Below are positions 21,318 to 60,513 of a stretch of DNA of 64,000 nucleotides, one piece after another. The stretch is taken from positions 7,766 through 71,765 of the forward strand of contig CASFPB010000039.1 in assembly GCA_949296605.1 (NCBI GenBank). Direction: 5' to 3'. Origin of the DNA: an uncultured bacterium (GTDB lineage: Bacteria; Bacillota_I; Bacilli_A; RF39; UBA660). Both the position numbers and the translations under genes were made by a program. The notes under the pieces were generated by a model that saw only the letters and a program-made list of their open reading frames with translations, searched no databases and was not told the DNA's origin. The number at the start of each line of letters is the position of its first letter. The first letter of the stretch is position 1.

Positions 21318-21404
21318 AATAAAAAAAGATAACTAAAAAGTAAATAACCGAAAAGTGTTCATTTGACTATATCTTGCATATATTTAATTAGGAAGGTGAT
21401 TTAC

Positions 21405-21941
21405 GTGTCTAGTTATAAAGAAATAGTTACAAAAGCAGTAATAGGTAAAGCTAAAAAGACCAGTAGCAATAAATTTTCTTTAACCCCAGAAGAAATTCCA
21501 AATACTGTTTTAGGTTGTTGGGTAATTAATCACAAATTTAATGGCAGTAAGAATGCTAAAGGAAGTGTTTTAGTTAATGGTTCATTTGATGTAAATGTTT
21601 GGTATTCATATGACTCTGATAAAAAGACTGCTGTAACAACTCAAACTTTTACTTATAGTGATGTTATGAATGTTCCACTTAAAGAAGATCGCAATATGCA
21701 AGATGCATCAGAAATAATTGTTAGATGCTTAAAACAACCCACAGTTTCCAATGTAAAAATAGAAAATAATGTTGTAAGCCTAGATGTCGAAAAAGAAATG
21801 GGTGTAGAAATTGTAGGGGATACAAAAGTGAAAGTTAGTGTGGAAGAAGACGAAGATGATTATGAAGAAATTTTTGATGAACAAGAACTTGATGAAATTA
21901 AAGACATAAACGAAAATTATTTAAATGAAGCATCCGAATGA
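21405..21941 (+). CDS. cotE: Spore coat morphogenetic protein CotE
   Basis: GTG at 21405 follows RBS ggaaggtga. SSYKEIVTKAVIGKAKK...GCWVINHKF...DVNVWYSY...VEIVGDTKVKV plus an acidic tail is colinear with B. subtilis CotE as I recall it. Confidence 0.8.
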   Translation: MSSYKEIVTKAVIGKAKKTSSNKFSLTPEEIPNTVLGCWVINHKFNGSKNAKGSVLVNGSFDVNVWYSYDSDKKTAVTTQTFTYSDVMNVPLKEDRNMQDASEIIVRCLKQPTVSNVKIENNVVSLDVEKEMGVEIVGDTKVKVSVEEDEDDYEEIFDEQELDEIKDINENYLNEASE

Positions 21942-22610: not shown

Positions 22611-22639
22611 TTTAAAAAGATTTCTTATTGTGTTAAAAT
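22611..22639 (+). promoter_or_regulatory. Candidate extended -10 promoter for the giant-repeat operon
   Basis: tttaaa (22611-22616), 17-nt spacer, tgtgt-taaaat (TRTGn + TAAAAT, 22634-22639). It lies 35 nt upstream of the ATG at 22674. Confidence 0.35.
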
Positions 22640-22673: not shown

Positions 22674-25600
22674 ATGGAACAAATATTTTGGGATAACTTC
22701 AAAAATACAGATAAATTATTAATTTTAGATTATGTAGGTAGGCTGCCACTGATATACCAAAAAGCATTACAGGATTGCTATGGTGAAGATTATAATGAAT
22801 TATTAAAAAAGGGAGTTAAACTTATTGATGCCAAAAAAGCTATAAAAAAAATTAATTATTTAATTAATAATCCTAATTATTATGTGCGTGCAACAAATTA
22901 TAATTCAGCTAAAAATTTAAATGGAGAAATAACAGTAAGTGGTGGTAAGCAAAAAGAAGTATATTTAAAAGAAAAAATAAATTGTGATGAAAGCATTTTA
23001 AAAAGAATATCAATAATTTTTAGATTAAATCCAGAATTTAAAATTTTGTATAAATATTTCGGTATAAATTTAGACAAAAGTATTGATGAATTTGAATTGC
23101 CAAGAGAAGATTATGAAACATTAAAAAAACTTTATAAGAATCTTAATGATTTTATAAGTAATAAATCAATTTTAATAAGAAACATTTTAGGTTTAACATA
23201 TAGTGAATTTGTATCTTATTTTGAAAAAGAATTAACGACAAATCCAAAATTAAAAAAATTAAAAAAGCTATGTAAAAAGACCATAATTACTGAGCCTATA
23301 AACTTATTGGATATAGATGATAAAACATTTTTAAGTATAATTAAATGTATTTATTGTTTAAAACCAAATATATTAGTGAATCAAATACTTGCAAATAATA
23401 AATTTAATATTACGTTACAAGAGTTCTTAGATGCAAATGAAAAAGAAATGGATTTTATATTATCCAAAAATGAAAATACTGATGTAGGTAACACTTTAAA
23501 AAATTTATGGCAAGACGATTACACAAAATTATGTATTGATAAAAATAATGATTCTATAAACGAATTAGTAACGATATTAAATGTTCTAATTAATGATTTA
23601 TTTTCATATAGATATTTAATTAAAGTTAAAACATTACAAGAAATATTGGAAGCAACAGAAGAAGAAATAGATTTTTTAAAAAATAATTTATCAAAAGAAA
23701 CATCTTCATATAAAATTATTTCAAAAGTATTTGGAAGTAACTTTAGAGGAACAAATGAGTTAAGATATATGTTGCATGGCAAAGATAATGAAGCATATCA
23801 TAATGCATTATTAAATTTGAAATTAAAACTAAGTAATTATAGAAATGGAAAATCTAGAAAATTTAAAACATTACAAGAATTATTAGGGGCATCAGAAGAA
23901 GAAATAGATTTTTTAAAAAAATATATTAATGATAATTATGAAAAATTTGCTATTATTATTAAAGTCTTTGGGAAAGAATTAAATGGGACAAATGAATTTT
24001 ATAAATATTTAAGCGCCGAAGAAAAAGTAGCATATTCTGAAAAAATTCATATTTTAAGAATAAATTTACAAAAGTTTAGAACAGGAAAATTACATGAATA
24101 TAAAAAATTAAAAGATATATTAAATGTATCAGAAGAAGAAATAGAACACATAAAAAAATACTATCCTAAAACAACAAAAGGCTATCAAATTTTATTAAAA
24201 GTATTTGGAGAAAATTTGGATAATGATGACTCATTATACTGTAATTTATTAGACAAAGAAAAAAATTTATATCGATATACATTGCAAGCTTTAAATATGT
24301 TTTTAAAAGATGGCATTAAAAAATATAAAACTTTACAAGAAATACTTGAAGCAACAGAAGAAGAAATGGAATTTTTAAAACAAAAATATCCTAAAAATAC
24401 AAAAAATTATATTTTGCTTATAAAAGTATTTGGAAATAATTTTGAAAATTCAAATTATAATTATGACAAACTAAATGGGGACGAAAAGAAAAAATACAGA
24501 AGTGCTTTAAAATCAATAAGGAAATTTTTAGAAAAACATAGAAAAAATTTAATAAAAAATGGTAAAACATTAGCCGAAATAATAAAAATATCACCAGAAG
24601 AAATTGAATATATAAAACAACAATATCCTAAAAATACAAAAAACTATAAAATTATAGTTAAGGTATTTGGCATAGAATTAAAGGACACAAATAAAAAATT
24701 AAATTATTTAACCAACGAAGAAAGAAAAACCTACTATAACGCTCTAAATTGCTTAAAAAGATTTATTAAAAGAAGTGAAACAAAGTGTAAACCTAAAACT
24801 TTACAAGAGTTATTAAATGCAACAGAAAAAGAAATAGATTTTTTAAATAAAAAAATATCTAAAAAAACAAAGACTTATACTATATTATCAAAAGTATTTG
24901 GTAATGATTTTAAAAAAACAAATGAATGTTATGATAGTTTAACAACACTAGAAAAAAGAACTTTTTCACAGACAATAATAAGATTAAAAAGCCTTTTAGA
25001 AAAATACAGAGAAACAAAGAAATTTGATTTTAAAACACTTTCCCAAATATTAGGCGCGACAAAAGAAGAAATAGAATTTTTGATGGATGAAACAGATAAA
25101 AGTTCAAAAATTTACAAAGTGATTTTAAAAGTATTTGGAGAGGATTTTGAAGGAACTAACGAAAAGAAGTTTTTATTAAATAATGAAGAAAAAAAGACAT
25201 ATAATAATGCAATATCATCATTAAAAGCTAGATTAAAAAATTATAGGAAAAATAAAAATATTAAATATAAAACTTTACAAGAAATACTTGAAGCAACAGA
25301 AGAAGAAATAGACTTTTTAAGTGAAATTACTCCTAAAAAAACTAAAAATTATGTTGTTCTTGTTAAAGTTTTTGGAGAAAGTTTTAAAGGAACAAATGAA
25401 CTATGTGAACAACTAACTGATGAAGAGAAGGTAACTTATTTTGCAGCAATAAAATCATTATCAGTAAGGCTAAAAAAATATCGTGACAATGGAAAAGATT
25501 ATAAAACCTTGCAAGAAATACTAAATGCAACAGATGAAGAAATAGAATATCTAAATGAAATTTATCCACAAAATACAAGAAGTTATCAATTTTTGGTAAG

Positions 25601-26081
25601 TATGTTTGGAATTGATTTTAGAAATATAGGAAATTTGAATAAATTATCTAGTGAAGCAAATATGTTGTTAAATGATACGATAGCAATATTACAAACATAT
25701 TTATGTATGCAAAGAGAAAATACGAAAGATGGAAATTTACAACAAATCGAAACAGAAGGCCCTGTTGAAATTTTAACAAGTAAAGAATATACAACGGTGG
25801 AAACACCATTTAAACATCCATTTTTTAAAGAATTTTTAATATTACTACCTATTGAATATCAATATATTACAGCATTAAGATTAGGTTTAGTATATGATGA
25901 AAAAATTCATTCCATTGAAGAATTAGCGGAAATATTTAATATTGATATTGAAACCGCAAGAAAAAGATGTTTAAAAGGAATAAACATATTTATATTAATA
26001 ATTGAAAAATATAAAGAATTGTATAATCAAAACATCCCCAATATTGATGCGCTAATAGAAAACATAAAATTAGTTTTATAG
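22674..26081 (+). CDS. Giant helical-repeat protein (1135 aa), sigma-less paralog: FW-x-NF linker module, degenerate repeats, 9 clear ~75-79 aa repeats, C-terminal sigma-region-4-like HTH
   Basis: Uninterrupted 3.4-kb ORF with RBS aaagga. The repeat consensus is KTLQEILxATEEEIxFLK..Y.IL.KVFG..F..TN.....L..EEK..Y..A...L...L..YR. The C-terminus reads TPFKHPFFKEFLILLPIEYQYITALRLGLVYDEKIHSIEELAEIFNIDIETARKRCLKGI. Confidence 0.85.
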   Translation: MEQIFWDNFKNTDKLLILDYVGRLPLIYQKALQDCYGEDYNELLKKGVKLIDAKKAIKKINYLINNPNYYVRATNYNSAKNLNGEITVSGGKQKEVYLKEKINCDESILKRISIIFRLNPEFKILYKYFGINLDKSIDEFELPREDYETLKKLYKNLNDFISNKSILIRNILGLTYSEFVSYFEKELTTNPKLKKLKKLCKKTIITEPINLLDIDDKTFLSIIKCIYCLKPNILVNQILANNKFNITLQEFLDANEKEMDFILSKNENTDVGNTLKNLWQDDYTKLCIDKNNDSINELVTILNVLINDLFSYRYLIKVKTLQEILEATEEEIDFLKNNLSKETSSYKIISKVFGSNFRGTNELRYMLHGKDNEAYHNALLNLKLKLSNYRNGKSRKFKTLQELLGASEEEIDFLKKYINDNYEKFAIIIKVFGKELNGTNEFYKYLSAEEKVAYSEKIHILRINLQKFRTGKLHEYKKLKDILNVSEEEIEHIKKYYPKTTKGYQILLKVFGENLDNDDSLYCNLLDKEKNLYRYTLQALNMFLKDGIKKYKTLQEILEATEEEMEFLKQKYPKNTKNYILLIKVFGNNFENSNYNYDKLNGDEKKKYRSALKSIRKFLEKHRKNLIKNGKTLAEIIKISPEEIEYIKQQYPKNTKNYKIIVKVFGIELKDTNKKLNYLTNEERKTYYNALNCLKRFIKRSETKCKPKTLQELLNATEKEIDFLNKKISKKTKTYTILSKVFGNDFKKTNECYDSLTTLEKRTFSQTIIRLKSLLEKYRETKKFDFKTLSQILGATKEEIEFLMDETDKSSKIYKVILKVFGEDFEGTNEKKFLLNNEEKKTYNNAISSLKARLKNYRKNKNIKYKTLQEILEATEEEIDFLSEITPKKTKNYVVLVKVFGESFKGTNELCEQLTDEEKVTYFAAIKSLSVRLKKYRDNGKDYKTLQEILNATDEEIEYLNEIYPQNTRSYQFLVSMFGIDFRNIGNLNKLSSEANMLLNDTIAILQTYLCMQRENTKDGNLQQIETEGPVEILTSKEYTTVETPFKHPFFKEFLILLPIEYQYITALRLGLVYDEKIHSIEELAEIFNIDIETARKRCLKGINIFILIIEKYKELYNQNIPNIDALIENIKLVL
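23628..25740 (+). repeat. Nine in-frame tandem coding repeats, period 225-237 nt
   Basis: Unit starts (K-T-L codons) fall at 23628, 23865, 24102, 24327, 24564, 24795, 25032, 25269 and 25503. A 47-nt perfect direct repeat occurs at 24321-24367 and 25263-25309. Confidence 0.9.
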
Positions 26082-26093
26082 AAAGGAGGATAA

Positions 26094-29000
26094 ATGAAAA
26101 ATAGTATTTTATTATATCAGCTTATGCAAGAATATGGTTTTTATAATAAATCAAGTGAATTTTATATTGAAATTATAAAAAAATATGAAATAAATGGCGA
26201 AGTTAATAGACAAGACATAATAAAAATTAGAGAAAGTATATTAAAAAAAATAAAAGGGGATATAAAGAATTTAAATATTGATTGGCTTATAAAGTTGTTC
26301 TTAAAAGTTAAAACGTTAAGTGATTTATCAAAGTTATTAAATTTATTAAATAAATATAATATAGTTTTAGATTTTAGTTTAATTGAAAATTTAATAAATA
26401 ATAATTCGCAAGTTGATGCTTTAATATTTAACTTTTTAAAAAAAGGAAAAAATATAACAATTTCATATATAGATAGAATTAGTGATAATGAGTTAGTAAC
26501 TGAACTTTTAATTGCCTATGCAACTATAAAAAATATCTTAACAAATGAATCAGAAAAAGAAGCAAACGAATATTATGAAGATGAAACTAAAAATTCTAAA
26601 ATTGATGATTCAATAGGCATGTATTTAAAAGAAATAGGTAGCATACCATTATTATCAAAAGAAGAAGAACTTGAATTATTTAAAAAGATAGAAATGGGCA
26701 GTAAACAAGCAAAAGATAGAGTAATTGAAGCAAATTTACGTCTAGCAGCTTCTATTGCCAAAAAATATTTGAACAAAGGTTTAGGGCTACAAGACCTTAT
26801 TCAAGAAGGAAATATAGGGATTATGAAGGCAGTAGAAAGGTTTGATTATAAGAAGGGATACAAATTTTCTACTTACGCAACTTGGTGGATTAGACAAACT
26901 ATTACAAGGGCAATAAGTGAACAATCTAGAACAATTAGAGTGCCAGTTCATATGAGTGAAGATATAAAAAACTTACATATAGCTAAAAATAATTTATCAA
27001 TTAAGCTAAATAGAGAACCAACTATTGAGGAAATTGCAGAAGTATTAAACATGACTTCAGATAAAGTATTAGAAATAATTAGATTTGACACAGAAACATC
27101 AACAGCATCATTAAATGCTACAGTTGGTGATGAAGATGATTCAGAGCTAGGGAATTTCATTGAAGATACTTTTTTTGAATCGCCAACAAAAACATTTGAA
27201 CAAAAAGATTTAAGTATTAGATTAAATGAAATGCTTAATGAGTTAAAAGATAGAGAAAAATCGGTTATAATGTATAGATTTGGTTTAATAAATGGAAAAC
27301 CTTATACACTTGAGGAAATAGGTATAATATTTAATGTTACAAGAGAAAGAATAAGGCAAATAGAAGCAAAGGCATTAAGAAAATTAGGTAACCCTGTAAG
27401 AGCTAAAAAAATAAAAGATTATTATGAATTTGAAGATGTTGATTGCAGAATATCAAAAGGATTTTGGAATAATTTTGCACATTATACAAAAGATATTGTT
27501 TTTTTAATAATTGATAATGATCTTGAAGAAAATTTAAAAAATGCACTATATGGAGTTTTCGGAAAAGATTTATCAAAAGTAAAAATTAAAAATTCAAGTG
27601 AAACAACAAAAGCAATAGAAGCAATTGAAGCAATTAAAACAATTTTAAAAACAAAAGATCAAAGTCAATACGAAATAACTTTACAAGAATATTTAAAAGC
27701 AACCGATGAAGAATATGAAAATTTAAAAAAGATTATTATATGTTCTTCTTACTGTGAAATATTATCAGAATTATTTGGTAGTAATTTTGATCAACCAAAA
27801 TCAGGTATAATAGCATCGCCAAGTAATGAGGCAACTTATTATAATATTGCATTTTGTTATTTAAAAAATTGTTTAAATAAACGATGCGAAGTTCTACCTG
27901 AATTTAGATTAGGAACGCTACAGGAGATACTTAATGCAAGCAAAGAAGAAATAAAATATTTAAAAGATAGCGTATTAAGTAAAACGGCTAACCGTTCTAT
28001 AATAATAAAAGTTTTTGGAAATAACTTAGATCAAATAAATTCAGGTTATTATGAATTAGAATATAGTGAAAAAAATAAATATTTTAAATCTATTTCGTAT
28101 TTAAAAAAAGAATTAACTAATTACAGAAAATTAAATTCAAGTAATAATATAACTTTGCAAGAAATACTAAATGCAACTGATGAAGAAATGTTATTTATAA
28201 AATGTAAAATTATAAATGATTCTTATTTTCAAATAATATTAAGAGTTTTTGGAAATGAATTAAATCAAACAAATAAAAGCTTTAATGAATTAAGCGAAGA
28301 AGAAAAAATAGAATATAATAAATGTATAAGAAGTTTAAAAGACAAAATACGAGGATTTAGAGTATTTAACAATAATAGAAGAAATTTGCAAAAGTATTTA
28401 AACGCATCTGATGAAGAAATGGTTTATTTAAATCAAACGTATATAGCTTCAGCAAAATTAAAAAATATTATCTATGGAATATATGGTGAAAATTTAAACG
28501 AATTTAACGTTTATTTTTACGCTAGCTTATCTGATAAAGAGTTATTTAATTATAGTTCATTTATAACAAATTTGCAAAAAAAATTAGAAAAACATCGCCA
28601 TGAGCAAAAAGATTGTAAAACTATTCAAGAACTTTTAGAACTATCAAATGAAGAATTAGAATTAATTAGACTTTATTATATAAATAAATCAGATAGATAC
28701 CAAATATTAATAGAAGTATTCGGAGAAAATTTAGACCAAACAAATAAAATAGTTTGTTCATTTAATAATCATAAAAATCAAACCTATAATAACGCTTTAA
28801 ATGATTTAAGAAAAACAATAAAAACGCATAGAGAAATAGTAGGCGTTGGAAAAACTATTTTTGAAATTTTAAATATGTCAATTGACGAATTTAATTTGAT
28901 TAAACAAAACTTTTCACAAAATTTTGCAAATTTTAATGTTTTAATAAAAGTATTTGGGGATAATTTTGATAAAACCGATGAAAACTATCATAATTTATCA

Positions 29001-29699
29001 ATTGAAGAAAAAGTAGAATATATTAAAGCATTAGAAGAGTTTACTAATTGTTTGATATCTGTTAGAACATACAAAACTAAACATCAAACATTACAAGAAA
29101 TACTGGGAGCTACAGAAGAAGAAATAGCATTTATAAAAGATAATTATCCACAAAATACAAAAAATTATGATATTTTAGTCAAAGTCTTTGGCATAGATTT
29201 CACAAATAATAATTATAATCTAACTGAATTAAATGATTTTGAGAAAGGTCAATACTACCGAGCAATAAATTGTTTAAGAAAATATTTAAAAAATTATAGG
29301 AAAGGTAAAAATAAATTACCTAAAAAAGAAGAGTCAAAATTACCAAATGATACTACTAAAATAGATAAACAAGATGACATAGAATATTTGGATGCATTAC
29401 CTGATATAAATTTAAATGAAATTAAAACACCTTTTACGCATCCATATTTTCAAGAATTTATTAATATTTTACCAGAAGAGTATCGTATTATAACTGCTAA
29501 AAGAATGGGATTAAGTGATGGTTGCATCCATTCTTTAACAAGCCTAGCAAAAGAATTTAAAATAAGTCCAAAAGAAGCTTATGATAAATGCGAAAATGGT
29601 ATAGCATTATTTATATTTATAGTTAAAACATACCAAACCACATTTAATAAAGAATTACCAATTTTAGATTTAGATATGTTATTAAAACGTCTTATATAA
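26094..29699 (+). CDS. Giant sigma-70 fusion protein (1201 aa): novel N-domain + complete SigA/RpoD-like regions 1.2-4.2 + 7 helical repeats + second, C-terminal sigma-region-4-like HTH
   Basis: Strong RBS aaaggagga, 12 nt after the upstream stop. The sigma core (nt ~26604-27427) has [77 protein letters not shown] and [28 protein letters not shown]. It is then followed by ~760 further aa. Confidence 0.88.
27675..29320 (+). repeat. Seven in-frame tandem coding repeats, period 231-237 nt
   Basis: The T(L/I)Q-E-I-L codon anchors fall at 27678, 27915, 28152, 28383, 28620, 28854 and 29088. The unit is the same as in 22674..26081. Confidence 0.85.
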
Positions 29700-29702
29700 A
29701 AA

Positions 29703-30395
29703 TTAAATATTTTTGTTTTTAATAAATTCAGTGAGCATTTTAGTAAGTGCTCTTTTTTCAATTCTAGAAACATAACTTCTAGATATTTTTAACTCTTTTG
29801 CTATTTCTTTTTGCGTCATTTCCTTAGTATTAAATAATCCATATCTTTTAACTATAATTTCTTTTTCTCTATCATTTAAAAGATTTAGATATTTATTTAA
29901 TAAATTAATATTGTTTTTAATTTCAAGTTGGTCAAATAAATCTTTATCCTTATCTTTTATTACATCTATTAAGCTTATTTCATTTCCATCTTTATCATAC
30001 CCAATAGCATCATTTAAACTAACAGTAACATTAACATGTTTATTAGCTCTAAAATGCATTAATAATTCATTTTGAATACATCTAGCAGCATAAGTAGTAA
30101 TTTTTGTTTTTTTATCATTATTATATGTATCAATTCCTTTAATAAGACCAATAGTTCCAATACTTATTAAATCATCAGTATCAACATCTTTGGTATCAAA
30201 CTTTTTAACTATATGTGCAACCAAACGTAAATTGTGCTCAATAAGTTTATTGCGAGAATTCTTATCTCCATTTAACATATCATTTATACATTTTTCTTCT
30301 TCTATAGCATTAAGTGGTTCAGGAAAAACATTATTAGAATAGCTTCCTGTAAAAAATAACATATCTTTAATAATATTAAACAAATTAAATAACAT
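29703..30395 (-). CDS. sigK: Sporulation sigma factor K precursor (pro-sigma-K), uninterrupted
   Basis: YSNNVFPEPLNAIEEEKCI..GDKNSRNKLIEHNLRLVAHIVKKF..DDLISIGTIGLIKGIDTY..TYAARCIQNELLMHFR matches SigK rather than SigE (HNLRLVAHIVKKF). It carries a ~20-aa hydrophobic pro-sequence. The ATG at 30395 follows RBS agaggtg; the track start 30401 is a GTG inside the RBS. Confidence 0.85.
   Translation of the reverse strand: MLFNLFNIIKDMLFFTGSYSNNVFPEPLNAIEEEKCINDMLNGDKNSRNKLIEHNLRLVAHIVKKFDTKDVDTDDLISIGTIGLIKGIDTYNNDKKTKITTYAARCIQNELLMHFRANKHVNVTVSLNDAIGYDKDGNEISLIDVIKDKDKDLFDQLEIKNNINLLNKYLNLLNDREKEIIVKRYGLFNTKEMTQKEIAKELKISRSYVSRIEKRALTKMLTEFIKNKNI
29733..29758 (+). terminator. Plus-strand intrinsic terminator for the giant-repeat operon, embedded in the 3' coding end of sigK (opposite strand)
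   Basis: Stem gagca(t)(29733-29738)/(g)tgctc(29747-29752) followed by a 6-T run (29753-29758). Confidence 0.5.
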
Positions 30396-30419
30396 AAACA
30401 CCTCTATACTTTATTTTAT

Positions 30420-30447
30420 TTGCAATTTTGAAATAATATGTTAAAAT
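30420..30447 (+). promoter_or_regulatory. Extended -10 promoter for the third giant sigma-repeat gene (divergent from sigK)
   Basis: ttgcaa (30420-30425), 16-nt spacer ending TGn, taaaat (30442-30447). It lies 28 nt upstream of the ATG at 30475. Confidence 0.5.
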
Positions 30448-30474
30448 ATATAACTATTACTGGGGGAATTAATA

Positions 30475-32802
30475 ATGGATATAAGTGTGATTGTAGAAAA
30501 ATTAAGTGAAGAATTTTCTTTTTACAATAAACCATACGAATATTATTTTAAAATATGTAATGAAATATTATGTGATGATGCAAATTTAATGTATAAATTT
30601 TGTTATGAAAAAGTAGTTTTAGATATAAAAAACGATTGGAAAAGTTTAAAAATTGGTTGGTTTATTGCAATATTTAAAGAAAATTTAAATGGAATGTTAG
30701 AAATATTAACTAAATTTGGATTAGTGATAGATAATACTAATTTTAAGCAAATTATAAAAAAATATCCTGATTTTGAAAATGTTTTAAGTGATTTAGTAGA
30801 AAATGATGCTTACTTAGATGAAAATGAAACATTAAAAAAACTAATTAAATTATACTTAAGTTATACAGAAAGCAAAATGAAAAATAAACAAGATAAGGAT
30901 ATATTATTGTGGGAAGAACAATTAGAAATATTTAAGATTTTAAAAGAATTAAGTAAAGAACCAGAAAAAAATAAAACTTTCATAGCTTATTATTATGATT
31001 TACTAGTAGAGCAATATAAAAATTTTGTTCGATCCCTAATACCAAAATATGAACAAGAAAAAGTAGAATATGATGATTTAGTTCAAGAAGGATTCATTGG
31101 ATTAATTAATGCAATTAGAAATTTTGATTATACAAAGGGTTATAAATTTTCATCATATGCTTATGTTGTTATAAAAAACGTTATTAGGAAATACATAAAT
31201 AAAAACATTAGATCAATAAGAATTCCTGATTCAATGTTAAACGATTATTTTAGAATAATATATACTCAAAGAGATTATTATATGTTAAATGGAAAAGAAG
31301 CAAGCGAAGAAAAACTATCAGAAATGTTAGGTATGTCAATAGAAAAAATTAGAAATGTTTTAATGTGCTGTGAAGATACAATATCATTATATGATTCTTT
31401 GGGTAGGGGACCAGAAGAAGCAGAATATACTTTATTATGTGCAATAAAAAATGAATCGTCCCCATTACCAGATGAAATATATGAAAGAAAACAAATAAAT
31501 TTGATGATAGAAGAATTGTTTAGTGTTTTAACAGGCATTCAAAGAAAAGTAATTGAACAATATTTTGGATTTTATAATCAAAAACCTAAATCAATTCAAA
31601 ATATAGCAGATGAACTTGGTTGTTCAAGAGAAAATATAGATCAAATAAGAAGTAATGCATTAAAACGAATGAGAAAACACCTAGCTGATAAAAAGAATAA
31701 TGATTTAAATACCTTTAGTAAATTTTCGTTAAATACAAATTATTTTTGGTATAACTTTATAGGCTTTAAAAAGTCAGATGTATTAGAAGCTATAAACGAA
31801 CTTGTAAATGAAAAAAAATTAAGTGAATTAGAGCAAAAATCCTTAATTGATAGATTTGGTAAAAAATATAATTTATTAAATAAAGTAGATGAAGAAACAA
31901 TAAAAGTTGTTAGTGTATCTATAGAAAAGATAAAAGAAAAACTTCTTGAAATACGAAAACGAAAATCGATGTTAAAAACAAAGATTGAAATAGGTAGTTT
32001 AATGGATATTTTAGATGCAACGATTGATGAAATAAAATATCTTAGATCAACTAGGAAAAAAGATAGTAAAAGCATAAATTTACTTACTAGATTATTTAAT
32101 GATGATTTTTTAAGAGAAGGATTAATACCAGTTTATTTAAGTAAAACTGAATTAAGAACTTATTATTCTGCTATAAGTGCATTAAGAGAATCATTAAAAC
32201 TTTATAGAAAAAAAGAAGAAACTAAAAGATATTACTTTGGCTTAACATTAAAACAAATATTAAATATAACTACTGAAGAAATTGAATTTTTAAAAAGAAC
32301 AATTAATCCTAAATCTGCTTATTATTCAGTATTAACTAAATGTTTTGGAACTTCATTAGAAGAAGAAAATAAAAATGAAAAATTGGATGAAAAAGAATTA
32401 AAATTATTAAAAATTGCTATAAGCAAAATGGAAGTATTAATTTTTTATTATAGAGAAGAAGAAACTAAAAGACTATTAAAAATCTATAGCTATTTTAACA
32501 TGCCTGAAGAAACTAATGAAAAAGTTGTTACACCATTTAGCAACCCAAGATTTAAATTGTTTATTCAATGCTTACCTGATGAGCTACAAATTATAACAGC
32601 GATGAGAATCGGAGCTGATAATGGCGTTATTAAATCGATATTTGAAATTGCAATGTATTTAAATGAAGATGAAGAAGAAGTAAGAAGAAAATGTGAAATA
32701 GGAATAAATTTGTTTAAAACGTTAGTAAGTGAATATAAAAATGAGTATGAAAATGATTTTGAAACATTTTTAATACAAAGTAGAAAAAAATACGGTAAAT
32801 AA
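30475..32802 (+). CDS. Giant divergent sigma-70 fusion protein (775 aa): N-domain paralogous to 26094 gene + divergent sigma regions 2-4 + FW-x-NF linker + 2 repeats + C-terminal sigma-region-4-like HTH
   Basis: RBS ggggga upstream. Region 2 reads DDLVQEGFIGLINAIRNFDYTKGYKFSSYAYVVIKNVIRKYI, where the Trp dyad is replaced by VV. Region 4 reads LTGIQRKVIEQYFGFYNQKPKSIQNIADELGCSRENIDQIRSNALKRMRKHL. The C-terminus reads TPFSNPRFKLFIQCLPDELQIITAMRIGADNGVIKSIFEIAMYL. Confidence 0.85.
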   Translation: MDISVIVEKLSEEFSFYNKPYEYYFKICNEILCDDANLMYKFCYEKVVLDIKNDWKSLKIGWFIAIFKENLNGMLEILTKFGLVIDNTNFKQIIKKYPDFENVLSDLVENDAYLDENETLKKLIKLYLSYTESKMKNKQDKDILLWEEQLEIFKILKELSKEPEKNKTFIAYYYDLLVEQYKNFVRSLIPKYEQEKVEYDDLVQEGFIGLINAIRNFDYTKGYKFSSYAYVVIKNVIRKYINKNIRSIRIPDSMLNDYFRIIYTQRDYYMLNGKEASEEKLSEMLGMSIEKIRNVLMCCEDTISLYDSLGRGPEEAEYTLLCAIKNESSPLPDEIYERKQINLMIEELFSVLTGIQRKVIEQYFGFYNQKPKSIQNIADELGCSRENIDQIRSNALKRMRKHLADKKNNDLNTFSKFSLNTNYFWYNFIGFKKSDVLEAINELVNEKKLSELEQKSLIDRFGKKYNLLNKVDEETIKVVSVSIEKIKEKLLEIRKRKSMLKTKIEIGSLMDILDATIDEIKYLRSTRKKDSKSINLLTRLFNDDFLREGLIPVYLSKTELRTYYSAISALRESLKLYRKKEETKRYYFGLTLKQILNITTEEIEFLKRTINPKSAYYSVLTKCFGTSLEEENKNEKLDEKELKLLKIAISKMEVLIFYYREEETKRLLKIYSYFNMPEETNEKVVTPFSNPRFKLFIQCLPDELQIITAMRIGADNGVIKSIFEIAMYLNEDEEEVRRKCEIGINLFKTLVSEYKNEYENDFETFLIQSRKKYGK
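31996..32480 (+). repeat. Two in-frame copies of the helical repeat unit (period ~249 nt)
   Basis: SLMDILDATIDEIKYLRS...LLTRLFNDDF... and TLKQILNITTEEIEFLKR...VLTKCFGTSL... Confidence 0.7.
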
Positions 32803-41145: not shown

Positions 41146-42174
41146 TTAGTTTTTAATTGCTTTTTTGTTTGTCCAAATTTTAATATATATTAACATAAAT
41201 AATAAAATCATAAATATAAATAGTATAGTAGGAAAACTTTTATATATTATCATTGAATTATAAAAGTTATTAGCAGTATATTGATTAACTATAATTAATA
41301 GTATTAGATTTATTAAAAATGGTATATAACTTTTTTTAACATTTATAATATTTTTAATCTTTAATGAACTAACTGACATACAAATAAATATATCAAAAAA
41401 CCATCCTACTGAAATAAAATTTTCAATATTTTCAATAAATTTGAAAAAGCTTATTTTTCTTAAAACAGAATACTCAGGATAACTATAAATATTTACTAAG
41501 TTTCCTAAAACAATTGTTAAAGTTAACACTACTACTAGAATTGTAAATGAACTAATTAAATAATATTTTAAACTGTTTTTAAAGTCTATATTTTCATCTA
41601 CTAATGTGATAAATGGAGCAGTAGATAAAATTGCAAATATTAAACTAGTTTTAAATATATTAGTAGGTTTAGTAGTAAAAAAGGGAAGTAAATTATTAAA
41701 ATCAAATTTATTTGTCAAAAGACAAGTTTTTAAAATAATTAAAACAATACTTATAACAAATAATATTTGGGCAACATATATTATCTTTTTTATAGATTTT
41801 GTGTTTAAAAAAGATGCTAAAAATATGAATGGTAAACAAGAAATAATTGATGGAGTAAATGGAAGGAAATATGAATATAAAAAAGTGGATAAAATAATTA
41901 GTAAGACAAAAATTCCAAATAAAATGAAACCTATTAGTATAATTTTAATTATAATGCTTAAAATAGAATCATTTTTTAAAAATGAGCTTAAAGGCATATT
42001 TATCTTTTTTTTAAAATAATTTATTAAATAAATTACAGCGATTCCTAAAAGTGAACCTAATATCACTGAAATGTATGCATCTTTATCACTGTATAAAAAT
42101 AAAATTGAAATACCACCACCTAAAAACAAACTACGAGCTAAAAAGTAAGTTAAAATATTAGAATTATTTTTCAT
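41146..42174 (-). CDS. Spore germination receptor B subunit (GerKB/GerAB-type permease-like)
   Basis: About 10 TM segments and the last gene of the A-C-B operon. ATG at 42174 follows RBS gaggtg. Confidence 0.7.
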   Translation of the reverse strand: MKNNSNILTYFLARSLFLGGGISILFLYSDKDAYISVILGSLLGIAVIYLINYFKKKINMPLSSFLKNDSILSIIIKIILIGFILFGIFVLLIILSTFLYSYFLPFTPSIISCLPFIFLASFLNTKSIKKIIYVAQILFVISIVLIILKTCLLTNKFDFNNLLPFFTTKPTNIFKTSLIFAILSTAPFITLVDENIDFKNSLKYYLISSFTILVVVLTLTIVLGNLVNIYSYPEYSVLRKISFFKFIENIENFISVGWFFDIFICMSVSSLKIKNIINVKKSYIPFLINLILLIIVNQYTANNFYNSMIIYKSFPTILFIFMILLFMLIYIKIWTNKKAIKN

Positions 42175-43240
42175 CGTGCACCTCATAAATTAAACCCTTT
42201 TTATTAATATTGAAATTAATATTACTTTTTATTTTTAAATTTAACCAATAATTTTCTTCTTTTTCTCTAGTTTTTTGATAATAGCTTTTTGATAATCCTA
42301 AAATATCACTCTTATATTTTTGAATTTTTTCTAAAAAGTTATTAAGTTTATTATTCATTATATTAGTAAAATCATTATTTAAATTATTTAAAACTTCTAA
42401 ACTTCTTATATCATAATTAGTTTCATTATCCATTATCTTTCCTTCTAAGCCACCTTCAACAAAAATCTTATTATCTGATATATATGTTTTTGTATCACCT
42501 GATATAATAGCTACAGAAAAATACAGATTATCGTATTCTTTAGAAAAAATTGGACGATAAAAATTATTTGTTAATATATTATAAATAGTAGCTTCATCAT
42601 TATTTAGTTTTTCTTTAAATTCATATTCATCAAATATTAATAAACCATCTATTTTAAATTGTTCATCATTTAAAGTAATATTTGAAAAACAAGTATCAAT
42701 ACCAAAAGTTATAATTTCATCAATCACTTGATCAAATGTTTTCATAACACTACTATTTGATGAATAATTATTACTTTCTAAAAGAGATATAATACTTGAA
42801 CTAACTACAGGATTATTTTTAGTAGTGTTATTAAGTATTTCTTTTGGAGATGAATCAATTGATGAAATAACGTAAAAATTTTCTCTAAAATATGTGCTTC
42901 TTATAAAATAATCAATTATAGTTTGAAATTTATCCTGAATAATAGAATCACTCAAAATCATTAATTTAACATGAGTATAATTTGCTTTATCTGCAATTAA
43001 ATCAGCAGTTTTTTCTATTGCTTTAGCAAGTGATTTATCACTATTTGTTTTAGTATATGAACTAATTTTAGATGATTCTTTATCACCAGAATCATTTAAT
43101 ATTTCTAATGTGATAATATATTTATCATCCTCATAATCAATTCCAATAGCACTAACAATACCTAAATTATTTACTTCTTGATAATCATAACAGCCGGAAA
43201 GTAAAAAAATAAAAGTAAGTAATAAAATTGCTTTTTTCAT
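42164..43240 (-). CDS. Spore germination receptor C subunit lipoprotein (Ger(x)C)
   Basis: Lipobox LLSGCY. NLGIVSAIGIDYEDDKYIITLEI is the typical GerAC N-terminus. RBS aaaggagga upstream. Confidence 0.8.
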   Translation of the reverse strand: MKKAILLLTFIFLLSGCYDYQEVNNLGIVSAIGIDYEDDKYIITLEILNDSGDKESSKISSYTKTNSDKSLAKAIEKTADLIADKANYTHVKLMILSDSIIQDKFQTIIDYFIRSTYFRENFYVISSIDSSPKEILNNTTKNNPVVSSSIISLLESNNYSSNSSVMKTFDQVIDEIITFGIDTCFSNITLNDEQFKIDGLLIFDEYEFKEKLNNDEATIYNILTNNFYRPIFSKEYDNLYFSVAIISGDTKTYISDNKIFVEGGLEGKIMDNETNYDIRSLEVLNNLNNDFTNIMNNKLNNFLEKIQKYKSDILGLSKSYYQKTREKEENYWLNLKIKSNINFNINKKGLIYEVHDEK

Positions 43241-44682
43241 TCTTTATCCTCCTTTTGTTTAATGATATTTTTATGAGTAAATAAGGTCGAGCGTTTAACA
43301 TCCTTTTTAATTGAAGATTTTAATACGGAGTTATTAAAGTAAGTTTTTTCAAATGGAGCTATCGGAGCAAAGTAAGGTTTTTTAAAACTTGTTATATTTG
43401 TGGTATAAATTAGAAAATATAAGAAACCTAAGGTTAGACCATATAATCCAAAGAAACCAGCTAGAATAATAAAAATAAATCTAAAAAATCTTAATGAATT
43501 ATTTATCTCAACATTAGTAAATGTTAAACTAGAAATAAATGTAATAGCAATAATAATTATCGTAATAGGGGATGCTATACCAGCAGAAACAGAAGCTTCA
43601 CCCAAAACAATTGCACCTAAAATGGATATAGCTGAACCATAATTTGAAGGAAATCTCAAATCGCTTTCTCTTAATATTTCACAAACTAATAGCATTAAAA
43701 TTGTTTCAATAATGGTTGGAAAAGGAACTCCATTACGCTGGATTGCAAAATCAATTAAAAGGTTAGTAGGTATAGTTTCTTGATTATAATTCATTATTGC
43801 AATGTAAAGTGCCGGCGCCATCATTGAAATAAAATAAGCAAAAAATCTTAAAATTTTAATAAAATTTATATTTTTACTTTTATTGTAATTATCAATATTT
43901 GGATTAATAAAATCTATAAAAAAAGCTGGAATAATCAAAGCATATGGAGAAGTGTCAATAACTAATGCTATTTTTCCTTCTAGTAAAGCAGTAGCTACCA
44001 TATCTGGCCGTTCTGTTTGTAAAAATGTAGGATATACATTTTTGGTTTCTTCATCTAATAAAAAACCTATAGAACTAGAATCAATAATCCCATCAATATC
44101 AATATTATCTAATTTTTTTAATATTTCTTTTACTAAATCCTCATCGGTAATATCATCAAAATACAAAACTCCAACATTAGTGTTAGTTTTTCTACCTATA
44201 ATTCTATTTTCAATTTTTAAATGACTAGATTTAATTCTTCTTTTTATTAATCCCACATTTATTTGATAATTTTCTGTAAAAGAATCTTTAGGACCATTAA
44301 TAGAAGTTTCAACATCAGCATTAGAAATACTTCTATTTATATCTGCTCTAGTTTCTACTGCAACAATTACATCTTTAAAAATAACAATTGTAAAACCATT
44401 TGTTAAATAAAACTCAATTTCATCTTCCGAAACATTTTTTTTAGTATTTGGTCCTGCTAAAAAAGATAATAAATTTTGTTTATTTATTTTATTATTAGTT
44501 TTTCCTATAATAATATTTTTAAGTATATAATCATTAATTTTATCACTACCACTAACTGTTTCTAAATAGACAACGTATAAAGTATTTAACAAATTTAATT
44601 TTATTTCTTTGATAATTAAATCTGGTGTTTTATTAAATTCTTTTTTTACTCTTTCAACTATTTTATTCAAGGTTATCACCAT
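43237..44682 (-). CDS. Spore germination receptor A subunit (GerKA/GerAA-type)
   Basis: Soluble N-domain plus 5 C-terminal TMs. Contains RADINRSISNADVETSINGPKDSFTENYQINVGLIKRRI and ERPDMVATALLEGKIALVIDTSPYALIIPA. Confidence 0.85.
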   Translation of the reverse strand: MVITLNKIVERVKKEFNKTPDLIIKEIKLNLLNTLYVVYLETVSGSDKINDYILKNIIIGKTNNKINKQNLLSFLAGPNTKKNVSEDEIEFYLTNGFTIVIFKDVIVAVETRADINRSISNADVETSINGPKDSFTENYQINVGLIKRRIKSSHLKIENRIIGRKTNTNVGVLYFDDITDEDLVKEILKKLDNIDIDGIIDSSSIGFLLDEETKNVYPTFLQTERPDMVATALLEGKIALVIDTSPYALIIPAFFIDFINPNIDNYNKSKNINFIKILRFFAYFISMMAPALYIAIMNYNQETIPTNLLIDFAIQRNGVPFPTIIETILMLLVCEILRESDLRFPSNYGSAISILGAIVLGEASVSAGIASPITIIIIAITFISSLTFTNVEINNSLRFFRFIFIILAGFFGLYGLTLGFLYFLIYTTNITSFKKPYFAPIAPFEKTYFNNSVLKSSIKKDVKRSTLFTHKNIIKQKEDKE

Positions 44683-55249: not shown

Positions 55250-55278
55250 TTGCTAAAATAAAAAATTTGTGTTAAAAT
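55250..55278 (+). promoter_or_regulatory. Extended -10 promoter of the 595-aa gene
   Basis: ttgcta (55250-55255), 17-nt spacer ending tgtgt, taaaat (55273-55278). Confidence 0.5.
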
Positions 55279-55302: not shown

Positions 55303-57090
55303 ATGTACGGAGAAAAAAATCAAGATGCATTAGTTGATTTATTTGTTGATAATGGATTTATTATACCTAGTGATCCTCAAAAAATGATGCTTTTTTCTAA
55401 AGAATCATCAATATTTGGAAGAGATGCACTTATAAATAAATTGATAGAATTAAAAAAGAAAGCAAAAGGAAAAGAAAACATAAGTGGATTTATCCCAGTA
55501 ATAATAAATTCAATTGAAGAAATAGAAAAAATTATTAATGATGATGAATTTTCAAGATTATCTGATCCTAATTTAATTTCTACAATTCAAAACTTATTTG
55601 ACAAAATAAAAAGAATAGGTAATTTTAAGGCTTATAATGAAGCTCAAATATTTATGCTAGAGCAAAAATCATTAATGTATGATTCAGCAAGAGCGTTGTT
55701 TGATTTACAAAATAACAAAACAGCAAGTCAAGCCCAAAAAACAAAAATGACTTTAGAATTGTGTGATAAAAAAGAAAAGTCTGAAAAGGAATTTTTAAAA
55801 GCGGCAGCAGCATTTAGAGATGAAGAAAAGAAATTAAATAGTTTCAATTTAACGGATTTAAAAAATGAAGCTTTAAAATATATTAATAGCTTAGAAGATA
55901 ACATAAAAAGAATAGCTTTAAATTCAGCTAATAAGGAAAAAGTTCAATCACTTGTTGTAAAATTGAGAGATGATGTTGTTTATTATGGATTAGAAGCAGT
56001 TAGAGCTCAAGCTGAACTTGACGAATTATGTAAAAGAGTCGGAGTAGTATATGATGCTAATGAACAAAAAGAATTAAAAGAACCTGAAGTCAATAAAGAA
56101 AAAGAACCAGAAAGTGTTCCAAACTTTTTTGACACTCCAACGCCTGCGATAGCTGCTGAACAAAATTTAACATCAGAACCACCAGTTGAAAGCCCTGTAA
56201 GTGAAGACATAAAACTAACAAGTGATTTTTCAAAAAGATTTCTAGATGCAGCCAAAAGATTAAATGAACCTGAAACTCATTCATTGGATACAAGTGAAGA
56301 ACCAACAACAGTTTTAAATCCAGATGAAGTAAAAAAACATTTAAGTGACTCAATGCGAATTAAAAATAGAATTACTAGGTTTATGGGATTGTTAAAAGCT
56401 CGAAATCCATTTACTGATTTTGAAGTTGTTGATGATTCAATGGATGATACATATGATGCTCATATAATAAGTTCTGACCCAATAGAAAAAATATTTTTAC
56501 CAAATAATTATGAATTAGTAAATAGATACATTACAAATACTCATACTGATGAACCACCAGTAAAATATTTGATTACAGAAAGAAAAAAAGAAGAAAATTT
56601 AACAGAACCTGATAAAAATGAATTGTCTGAAGGTCAAGAAGCACCTGTTATAAATGAACCTGATGAAAAATCAAAACAAAGCAGTGAATCAATGGCTCAA
56701 AAAGAAAAAGTTCATAGAACAAGAGGGGCCATAATGGGAAAATTTCCAAAAGCACTTCTTACTCATCTAGGAATTTATAAATTATTATCAAAAATAAATA
56801 ATAGAGGTAAAAATATAGAAATTCCTGAATTAGAAAAAGCATCTGGAGAAATATCTAAAAAAGTTGATGGTAGTAGTATATCATCATCATTAAATGCTAC
56901 GCCTCAAGAAAAAGCAAGAGAAGGTGTTAAAAGAGGAATAAAATTATTCGGAGGATATAGAGGAAGAAGAACAGCAAGTGCAATGGCTAAAAAAGATATT
57001 CCTAAGCAACAAAAGGTAGATAATCCAATGGAAGGCTTAGAAGATTTATATGCAGAAATTGAAAATTTAACTGGTAGCATGGGGAGGTAA
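55303..57090 (+). CDS. Hypothetical 595-aa protein: helical N-half, acidic Pro/Glu-rich low-complexity centre, basic C-terminus
   Basis: Long ORF with RBS agagaggt. No catalytic or family motif recognised. Confidence 0.6.
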   Translation: MYGEKNQDALVDLFVDNGFIIPSDPQKMMLFSKESSIFGRDALINKLIELKKKAKGKENISGFIPVIINSIEEIEKIINDDEFSRLSDPNLISTIQNLFDKIKRIGNFKAYNEAQIFMLEQKSLMYDSARALFDLQNNKTASQAQKTKMTLELCDKKEKSEKEFLKAAAAFRDEEKKLNSFNLTDLKNEALKYINSLEDNIKRIALNSANKEKVQSLVVKLRDDVVYYGLEAVRAQAELDELCKRVGVVYDANEQKELKEPEVNKEKEPESVPNFFDTPTPAIAAEQNLTSEPPVESPVSEDIKLTSDFSKRFLDAAKRLNEPETHSLDTSEEPTTVLNPDEVKKHLSDSMRIKNRITRFMGLLKARNPFTDFEVVDDSMDDTYDAHIISSDPIEKIFLPNNYELVNRYITNTHTDEPPVKYLITERKKEENLTEPDKNELSEGQEAPVINEPDEKSKQSSESMAQKEKVHRTRGAIMGKFPKALLTHLGIYKLLSKINNRGKNIEIPELEKASGEISKKVDGSSISSSLNATPQEKAREGVKRGIKLFGGYRGRRTASAMAKKDIPKQQKVDNPMEGLEDLYAEIENLTGSMGR

Positions 57091-60484: not shown

Positions 60485-60513
60485 TTGACAATTTTTTTAT
60501 AAATAATTATAAT
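60485..60513 (+). promoter_or_regulatory. Perfect-consensus SigA promoter
   Basis: TTGACA (60485-60490), 17-nt spacer, TATAAT (60508-60513). It lies 27 nt upstream of the ATG at 60540. Confidence 0.65.

Follow-up and report, generated by a model that had tools for sequence, protein, structure and literature searches.

A SigA-like sigma factor fused in frame to a new N-terminal domain and a long C-terminal repeat module in an uncultured, AT-rich member of the Bacillota

To our knowledge, sigma factors of the primary type end within a few residues of region 4.2, and where they carry extra domains these are N-terminal or separate region 1.2 from region 2. Gene B lies in a 64,000-nucleotide stretch of DNA from an uncultured member of the Bacillota (GenBank assembly GCA_949296605.1, contig CASFPB010000039.1, positions 7,766 to 71,765 of the forward strand; hereafter the window), and its product has a SigA-like core that is followed by several hundred further residues and preceded by a domain of its own. 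It sits in a cluster with sigK and two relatives, the sigma-less paralog A and the degenerate paralog C. The locus raises the questions of whether so unusual a protein is a genuine single product, whether it is the housekeeping sigma factor of its host or an accessory one, and what the added parts might do. We find that B is an intact primary-type sigma factor fused to an unrelated N-terminal domain and a C-terminal tail module; coordinates of its parts and of the surrounding features are collected in Table 1.

A complete sigma factor within a longer protein

Gene B is a single uninterrupted open reading frame (ORF) of 1,201 amino acids. At 90% identity its product falls into a cluster of 62 sequences, which derive from separate assemblies of NCBI, ENA and Logan, and of the 15 listed members 13 are 1,201 residues long and one is 1,200, the remaining one being a 133-residue fragment. 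Because the length is constant across independent assemblies, the junction between sigma core and extension is not a frameshift or an assembly artefact. None of the source records of B and of the listed cluster members names the protein.

Pfam recognizes the four conserved segments of the core in order, with Sigma70_r1_2 at residues 172–202 (43.3 bits against a cut-off of 22), r2 at 211–280 (77 against 24), r3 at 291–365 (55.5 against 25.3) and r4 at 381–431 (64.1 against 24.1), and its scores above the Pfam gathering thresholds in regions 2, 3 and 4 place B in the sigma-70 family. In a phmmer search of the sequences of PDB entries, residues 165–445 of B align with residues 93–371 of Bacillus subtilis SigA (7ckq_F), the last of which is the final residue of SigA; the 281 residues are colinear and score 308 bits (E 1e-90). 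The alignment with B. subtilis SigA preserves region 2.2 (DLIQEGN.G.MKAVE.FDY) and region 3.0 (VHMSE), as well as regions 2.3/2.4, the region 3.2 finger and region 4.2, and the residues that contact the -10, extended -10 and -35 elements are retained. Measured against a 96%-identical ortholog (L089), the comparison used for all such ratios given here, the ratio of nonsynonymous to synonymous substitution rates (dN/dS) of the sigma core is 0.14.

A first-pass annotation of this DNA, made from the sequence without database searches, had described a complete SigA/RpoD-like core with a novel N-terminal domain of about 165 residues and a long in-frame C-terminal extension that includes seven repeats and a second helix-turn-helix (HTH) resembling region 4. 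This description holds throughout: the ORF, Pfam, phmmer, a profile hidden Markov model (HMM) of the repeat unit, hhalign and Foldseek agree on the core, the N-domain and an extension of about 756 residues, and the group-1 hallmark motifs that it quoted were found in an alignment that runs to the end of SigA. It had also raised the possibility of a frameshift or stop after nucleotide ~27430 in other assemblies, which was not found among the listed cluster members, 14 of the 15 being full-length at 1,200–1,201 residues.

The C-terminal extension and its region-4-like tail

The extension consists of a head unit, seven tandem units, an acidic linker and a tail. The unit HMM places the unit starts at residues 528, 607, 685, 763, 841, 920 and 997, each with an E-value of 1e-31 to 1e-34; the units are about 78 residues long, with the consensus KTLQEILxATxEEIxFLK...YxILxKVFG...EKxxYxxAIxxLxxxLxxxR. 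An AlphaFold2 (AF2) model of residues 920–1201, built from 15 rows of unit pairs, has a predicted local distance difference test score (pLDDT) of 81 and comprises two five-helix units, the linker and a four-helix tail. The helices of a unit run in the order of two short, one with a near-invariant VFG, one short and one long, and within the modeled part only residues 1075–1104 are clearly disordered. On this model, the unit array, which varies in length across the relatives described below, and its disordered linker resemble a spacer or a tether. Pfam has nothing that covers the head, unit, tail or N-domain of B, and a search with the extension against the sequences of solved structures gave no match under E 0.29. 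A reading of the units as reiterated copies of region 4 is unsupported in sequence, as the best hhalign probability for units or unit pairs is 9%, over their HTH-like start. The extension is under purifying selection and clearly not decaying, with dN/dS of 0.19 in the units and 0.24 in the tail; the linker has a ratio of 1.85, from 9 changes only.

The tail is a homolog of sigma region 4, as judged from profile comparisons. With hhalign, the three tails encoded in the window match a 121-sequence alignment of region 4 with 94.6% probability, and 40 tails from across the family do so with 97.3% (E 1.7e-11) over 56 columns that span region 4.1 and the HTH. Foldseek matches the model to region 4 of Taq sigma-A on -35 DNA (1ku7_A; TMt 0.64, root-mean-square deviation 3.2 Å, the aligned part of the model being unreported). 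In region 4.2 a conserved helix rich in Arg and Gln makes the -35 contacts. Opposite its VTRERIRQ, the tail helix has SPKEAYDK in B; the family consensus there is dEeev, within a recognition helix that as a whole is i-d-E-e-e-v..k..kGI, and in these alignments acidic residues stand where region 4.2 has its Arg/Gln-rich helix.

These features bear on what the module might bind. Homology to a DNA-binding region, together with the match to a region 4/-35 DNA complex, invites the reading that the C-terminal module is a second DNA reader, either a tethered activator or a reader of UP elements, in which the tail and possibly also the HTH-like start of every unit would contact upstream DNA, with paralog A acting as a free transcription factor at the same sites; the recognition helix is kept family-wide (K..KGI..F), so a conserved target would be expected, the C-terminus of sigma faces upstream DNA, and paralog A is basic, with a net charge of +26 and an isoelectric point (pI) of 9.0. 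We nevertheless consider such a role unlikely, for the helix opposite VTRERIRQ is acidic and the extension of B is itself not basic (net charge -7, pI 6.0; single units from -3 to +4). No repeated DNA motif was found ahead of candidate target genes either, though no search aimed at one was made. The acidic recognition helix and the non-basic extension point to a protein partner rather than DNA.

The N-terminal domain

Nor does the other end of B resemble a canonical sigma factor. An AF2 model from a six-sequence alignment gives the N-domain a confident nine-helix fold (pLDDT 84.4; predicted template-modeling score, pTM, 0.72); the acidic linker after it is disordered. Foldseek finds no match to it in the PDB (best E 1.7, template-modeling (TM) score below 0.3), with no sigma factor among the 50 structures listed, and the Pfam model of region 1.1 (PF03979) has no match in B. 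Descent from a divergent region 1.1 was considered and rejected, given the absence of sigma factors from the Foldseek results and an hhalign probability of 0.4% against the N-termini of 112 canonical SigAs. Region 1.1 is an acidic DNA mimic; residues 1–150 of the N-domain are basic, with a pI of 9.1. By BLAST the N-domain is a homolog of the N-terminal part of paralog C (E 3e-9), and its dN/dS is 0.31.

A family of related proteins at a conserved locus

The extension belongs to a family that is easily overlooked: a word-indexed search with the extension alone returned proteins of the same species only, and the family surfaced only in an exhaustive profile search. An 18-unit profile HMM run against 1.84 billion representative proteins retrieved 80 at E ≤1e-3 and 39 at ≤1e-10. 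About 35 of these roughly 80 unit-bearing proteins combine sigma regions (r1.2/2, r3 and r4) with units and tail; in about 45 there are units but no sigma, and the tail may be present or absent. The number of units ranges from 1 to 13. The tail is also present in 44 of the scanned unit-bearing proteins (about 80 with a unit). It always closes the protein at the C-terminus, where a median of 2 residues follow it, and is the best-conserved module, with the consensus TPFxHPxFKEFIKLLPxEYxLITxLRLGLYDGxIHSIxEIAExFNI. We propose a family defined by at least one 78-residue unit (KTLQEIL..EE....KVFG) followed by an extreme C-terminal tail (TPFxHPxFxEF..LPxEY..IT..R.GL.DG), the sigma core being optional; B, with seven units and the tail, is a member. 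Beyond the species cluster of B itself, no relative exceeds 37% overall identity. As far as seen, the family is small, fast-evolving and confined to an uncultured clade of spore-forming Bacillota with 23–29% GC. A neighbor-joining tree of 99 sigma cores recovered the family as monophyletic in 0 of 100 bootstraps, an uninformative result owing to long branches.

In four related species, that of the window and those represented by L086, L092 and L093, two to four family members lie in one locus with the arrangement rpsP-KH…sigK…polA. In all four, sigK is divergent from a family gene, the two being separated by 73–94 nt (30402–30474 in the window, 8260–8353 in L086, 5416–5497 in L092 and 2530–2622 in L093). 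The divergent partner varies, being paralog C in the window, a gene for a 548-residue protein in L086, P0191 in L092 and a gene for a 1,955-residue protein in L093. The arrangement may reflect a conserved link between the family and sigK, the gene for the late mother-cell sigma factor. Members within the loci span the range from near-canonical sigma factors to fragments, and the pattern that the compared loci present is one of birth and death. The 1,955-residue protein of L093 (2623–8490) combines an N-domain and a complete sigma core with a head, 12 units and a tail, and is the largest sigma-family protein found.

Other long sigma factors were also encountered. P0002, P0016 and P0011 are longer SigA-like proteins with a similar N-terminal region and other C-terminal extensions, which contain bona fide region-4 repeats; none of the three adjoins dnaG. 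In L083 and L084, which encode P0016 and P0002 respectively, the extension has duplicated region-4 HTH units (LTEREYRVLELRFGLKDG...) and the gene is the immediate downstream neighbor of tad-pilus T2SSF genes; the long SigA-like gene of L083 also immediately precedes ruvAB. P0016 and P0002 may exemplify another class, independent of the first, of primary-type sigma factors extended at the C-terminus.

A probable accessory, rather than housekeeping, sigma factor

The first-pass annotation had allowed B to be either the housekeeping sigma factor or a second group-1-like one, and the evidence favors the latter. B is most likely an accessory primary-like sigma factor rather than the housekeeping one, and we predict that a canonical sigA lies in another part of the genome. 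The strongest point is the pace of its evolution. Between the species of the window and those of L086 and L092, identities are 84–85% for RpsP, 80–81% for SigK, 76% for PolA and 75–80% for Fpg, whereas the best family core in those species is only 45–53% identical to that of B; a core that diverges faster than PolA and SigK would be unprecedented for a housekeeping sigma factor, and this argues for accessory status. So do the scores of B below the cut-offs of the RpoD equivalog models (373.7 bits against 572 for NF006666, and 323.9 against 354 for TIGR02393, RpoD_Cterm), its lack of region 1.1, and its place among several paralogs at a conserved locus. The PolA of the window scores well above its own cut-off, and SigK reaches its own. 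The B core shares on average 57.5% identity, and at most 59%, with 45 canonical SigAs sampled from diverse bacteria, which are on average 74% identical to each other. The canonical SigA genes that were checked (L088, L090 and L091) directly follow dnaG. Over seven tests for a housekeeping SigA, B differs in four (RpoD models, region 1.1, dnaG context and slow evolution), and its promoter-contact residues agree. With group 2 it shares regions 2–4 near those of group 1 and the absence of a canonical region 1.1, and the coexistence with a primary sigma factor that also marks this group is a prediction.

It is rather improbable that B is instead the sole primary sigma factor, in a clade that swapped its dnaG-linked sigA for a sigma factor with an N-domain and a repeat tail that runs bulk transcription. 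All that a group-1 sigma factor needs to bind core polymerase and to recognize the -10, extended -10 and -35 elements is indeed intact in B and its core is under purifying selection, the locus of every one of the four species keeps one or more fusions of comparatively canonical type (B, the 714-residue protein of L086, P0191 and P0202), and sigma-A-type promoter-like sequences precede rpsP and other genes. Nor was a canonical sigA from a comparably AT-rich contig present among the best 120 of 8000 core matches, where the two most AT-biased candidates, P0301 and P0282, are on contigs of 44% and 37% GC and were rejected on that account as the canonical SigA of this lineage; but this absence is uninformative, since those 120 were taken from 8000 candidates with near-equal scores. 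Against a sole primary role stand the divergence of the core between sister species, far beyond that of PolA and SigK, the RpoD scores below cut-off and the lack of region 1.1, and the position of B among degenerate paralogs that gain and lose copies. If B, or its most canonical counterpart in each species, did have this role, a whole spore-forming lineage would carry out its bulk transcription with a sigma factor in which region 1.1 has been exchanged and a 750-residue array ends in a second region 4, and the sigma-less and degenerate paralogs would compete for the binding target of the tail.

Two outliers of the core search, P0279 (L088, 3851–5176) and P0283, were set aside as chimeric assemblies with a duplicated region 2. 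Both are dnaG-linked SigAs in which an internal duplication from region 2 to region 3 inflates the scores, and this looks like a chimera of metagenome assembly.

Paralogs, neighboring genes and promoter-like elements

Paralog A is 33% identical to the extension of B over 717 residues and corresponds to the extension alone. The 12-nt gap between its TAG and the ATG of B contains AAAGGAGG, and the same 12-nt spacing is found in assemblies L081 and L089. On the other side of B, the stop codons of B and sigK are 3 nt apart in convergent orientation; because the sole terminator-like hairpin after B lies inside the last codons of sigK, the transcripts of the two genes must overlap or collide. Paralog C has no region 1.2, both Trp residues of YATWWIRQ are replaced (YAYVVIKN) and its region 4.2 reads SRENIDQIRSNAL, and to judge from these changes it may be unable to melt promoters in the usual way. 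Its gene is intact, with 775 residues in 13 of the 15 listed members of a 56-sequence cluster. Paralog C and SigK are the only other products of sigma ORFs in the window.

The surroundings of the A-B-C locus consist of core genes together with sporulation and germination genes. The ORF at 21363–21941, just upstream of rpsP, encodes a homolog of the spore coat morphogenetic protein CotE; the assignment rests on close similarity to an L086 gene with Pfam PF10628, and its true start probably lies downstream of the listed TTG. On the reverse strand, positions 41146–44682 are occupied by an operon of the gerA type for a germination receptor, with genes for GerXA, GerXC and an endospore germination permease. 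This operon and sigK show the organism to be an endospore former, despite a GC content of about 23.5%. Rfam and transfer RNA scans of the window returned nothing.

The 9-mer TGTTAAAAT, resembling an extended -10 element, occurs three times on the forward strand, each time 24–35 nt before a start codon: once before each of paralogs A and C, and once at 55270–55278, ahead of a gene that starts at 55303. There are five further copies on the reverse strand, and the element also precedes P0191 in L092. As consensus matches, these elements are compatible with transcription of the family genes by a sigma-A-type holoenzyme. Exact copies of TTGACA-N17-TATAAT number only one in the window (60485–60513), and with up to one mismatch there are 6 against 3.1 expected, a count reached in 9 of 100 shuffles and so not an enrichment.

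These results bear on the remaining claims of the first-pass annotation. The coupled arrangement of B with a sigma-less upstream paralog is borne out by the 12-nt gap and the motif within it, and B does not adjoin dnaG, no copy of which was found in the 64-kb window by tblastn with DnaG. The several textbook TTGACA-17-TATAAT promoters that it reported in the window, on the other hand, are reduced to the one exact match.

Table 1. Positions of gene B, its parts and neighboring features in the window, with gene orders of the corresponding loci in three related species
Feature	Position (nt)	Strand	Basis or gene order
TGTTAAAAT, extended -10-like element, 35 nt before the paralog A ATG; candidate promoter of an A-B operon	22631..22639	+	consensus match only
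Paralog A (1135 aa), sigma-less: FWxNF head, degenerate units, 9 strong 78-aa units, sigma-4-like tail	22674..26081	+	Pfam, unit HMM, BLAST
12-nt spacer AAAGGAGGATAA with Shine-Dalgarno, paralog A TAG to B ATG	26082..26093	+	sequence
Gene B, whole ORF including stop, 1201-aa fusion protein	26094..29699	+	ORF listing, cluster members
B, N-domain (aa 1-165), nine helices and acidic linker, common to paralog C	26094..26588	+	AF2, BLAST
B, sigma-70 core (aa 171-445), regions 1.2, 2, 3 and 4	26604..27428	+	Pfam, NCBIfam, phmmer
B, head unit (aa 446-527), starts FWNNF	27429..27674	+	homologous to paralog A N-terminus and paralog C aa 421-508
B, seven tandem ~78-aa units (aa 528-1074), five helices each	27675..29315	+	unit HMM, AF2
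B, acidic disordered linker (aa 1075-1110), net charge -5	29316..29423	+	pLDDT 37-55
B, tail (aa 1111-1201), sigma region-4-like HTH, extreme C-terminus	29424..29696	+	hhalign, Foldseek, family consensus
sigK (232 aa as listed), convergent with B, divergent from paralog C	29703..30401	-	NCBIfam SigK subfamily, 312.5 bits against cut-off 252
Terminator-like hairpin and T-run, 34 nt past the B stop, inside sigK 3' end	29733..29752	+	pattern match only
TGTTAAAAT, extended -10-like element, 28 nt before the paralog C ATG	30439..30447	+	consensus match
Paralog C (775 aa): N-domain, degenerate sigma core, head, 2 units, tail	30475..32802	+	Pfam, unit HMM, BLAST
L086 locus, 27% GC			cotE-rpsP-KH-(572 aa)-sigK(-)-548-832-714-polA-fpg
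L092 locus, 23.6% GC			rpsP-KH-(782)-sigK(-)-1137-280-848-polA
L093 locus, 29% GC			rpsP-KH-sigK(-)-1955-1173-1243-698-...-polA

A proposed mode of action

The family might in principle be a conflict system, in which fast-evolving sigma-like proteins and sigma-4 mimics act as guards or decoys against phage factors that hit the host sigma factor or RNA polymerase. Its rapid divergence, copy-number turnover, range of 1–13 units and degenerate members are what such a system could show, and the sigma part of MzaA, a sigma-70 family protein of a known defense system, is matched by the core of B. We find this very improbable all the same: the MzaA match is to a generic sigma domain only (323 bits against a cut-off of 800), PADLOC assigns A, B and C to no other defense family, and in all four species the surroundings of the locus, from rpsP to polA, are core genes, with no integrases, effector genes or mobile-element signs. 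Paralog A, used as a single-protein query and so able to reach close relatives only, had no relative among the viral contigs scanned. It is highly unlikely, too, that the extension is cleaved off after translation to leave an active sigma factor of normal size, the fusion being just a delivery form or pro-protein as in pro-sigma-E and pro-sigma-K; pro-sigma processing is well known in sporulating Firmicutes, B adjoins sigK and SigA normally ends exactly where the extension starts, but known pro-sequences are short and N-terminal, the 756 residues in question are folded, under purifying selection and also found standing alone as paralog A, and residues 445–455 contain no recognizable protease site or disordered hinge.

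The explanation that we favor overall, with moderate confidence, is that B is a functional SigA-derived sigma factor of group 1/2 type, accessory in role and fused to two lineage-specific modules, the second of which is a protein-tethering tail. The sigma core would bind core RNA polymerase and read ordinary sigma-A-type -35/-10 promoters, with the basic nine-helix domain at the N-terminus taking the place of region 1.1. In established structures of the sigma70 holoenzyme the C-terminus of sigma faces upstream DNA, and the C-terminal module of B would project upstream from the point where region 4.2 ends, which lies at the upstream boundary of the promoter complex. There it would serve as a protein-binding tether or regulator rather than as a second DNA reader, and its tail may bind a conserved partner, possibly one that normally docks on sigma region 4. 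Paralog A, made from the same message, could occupy the same partner or pair with the module of B and so tune B and C, in an interplay akin to that of a fused or in-trans anti-sigma factor or adaptor, as with the regulators of extracytoplasmic function (ECF) sigma factors.

Several observations weigh against this explanation. The survey of sigma ORFs found no canonical sigA in the 64-kb window, and we infer the accessory status of B; it keeps all of the promoter- and core-contact motifs, with one of the most canonical cores of the family, and a relocated housekeeping sigma factor would look like B. The units show no significant profile similarity with hhalign to sigma regions 2, 3 or 4 or to the tail. 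A Foldseek search of the PDB and viral libraries with the model of two units plus tail returned a top 50 in which all rows that bear a description are sigma factors or sigma-containing RNA polymerase complexes, but these matches are marginal (E ≥0.009, TM about 0.2), so that the sigma likeness of the model is a hint only. The dN/dS values of the extension, finally, come from few substitutions, 28 in the units and 4 in the tail.

Relationship to known sigma factors

With the housekeeping SigA/RpoD of Bacillota (7ckq_F), B shares the colinear regions 1.2 to 4.2 and the promoter- and core-contact residues, but it differs in having an unrelated domain for region 1.1 and an extension of 756 residues where SigA stops, and in having no adjoining dnaG. 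The group 2 sigma factors, such as RpoS, the cyanobacterial SigB–E and mycobacterial SigB, are like B in their near-group-1 regions 2–4, retained promoter-contact residues and lack of canonical region 1.1, and B scores higher on RpoD models than on those of RpoS or SigB. We know of no group 2 sigma factor that carries a C-terminal extension, and of no report that SigA2, which gives a second SigA a precedent in Clostridia, has either a repeat array at its C-terminus or a second region 4. In Clostridioides difficile, sigA2 (CD1498) encodes a group-1-type sigma factor of stationary phase alongside the dnaG-linked sigA1, and its product shares 56% identity with B. subtilis SigA (PMC7438776). The distance is similar to the ~57% between the B core and canonical SigAs, a likeness from which no orthology is claimed.

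Among the ECF sigma factors, C-terminal extensions serve as fused regulators in 19 groups, instead of anti-sigma factors (PMC7826278). The SnoaL-like domains of ECF41 and ECF56, the TPR of ECF42 and the Cys-rich domain of ECF238 all follow the sigma core and modulate its activity, an arrangement like that of B, where the core is likewise followed by a non-sigma domain (PMC7826278). ECF sigma factors, however, belong to group 4 and have regions 2 and 4 only, whereas B has regions 1.2 and 3 and is not one of them, and their extension domains are unrelated to that of B, which ends in a second region-4 homolog. MzaA of the MZA anti-phage system is also a long protein with a primary-like sigma part, and residues 204–446 of B match positions 474–716 of its model. 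In MzaA, though, the sigma part is C-terminal and the extra domain N-terminal, and B has housekeeping neighbors with no Mza partner genes near it; an identification of B with MzaA was rejected, as its score below the cut-off comes from the sigma part only.

We found no description in the literature of a primary-type sigma factor whose C-terminus bears a repeat array together with a second region 4. A SigA-like sigma factor with a long, folded C-terminal array under selection and a second region-4 domain would represent a new design for a sigma factor or a new means of regulating one, and the sigma-less and degenerate versions of the module, several of them co-transcribed or clustered around sigK in four species, suggest an unrecognized layer of sigma competition or tethering. 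Automated annotation of such proteins as plain "RpoD/sigma-70" could mislead metabolic and regulatory reconstructions of these very AT-rich Bacillota. Set beside the known systems, B presents a new domain architecture built on a known sigma engine, and its N-domain, 78-residue unit and tail would constitute three new domain families.

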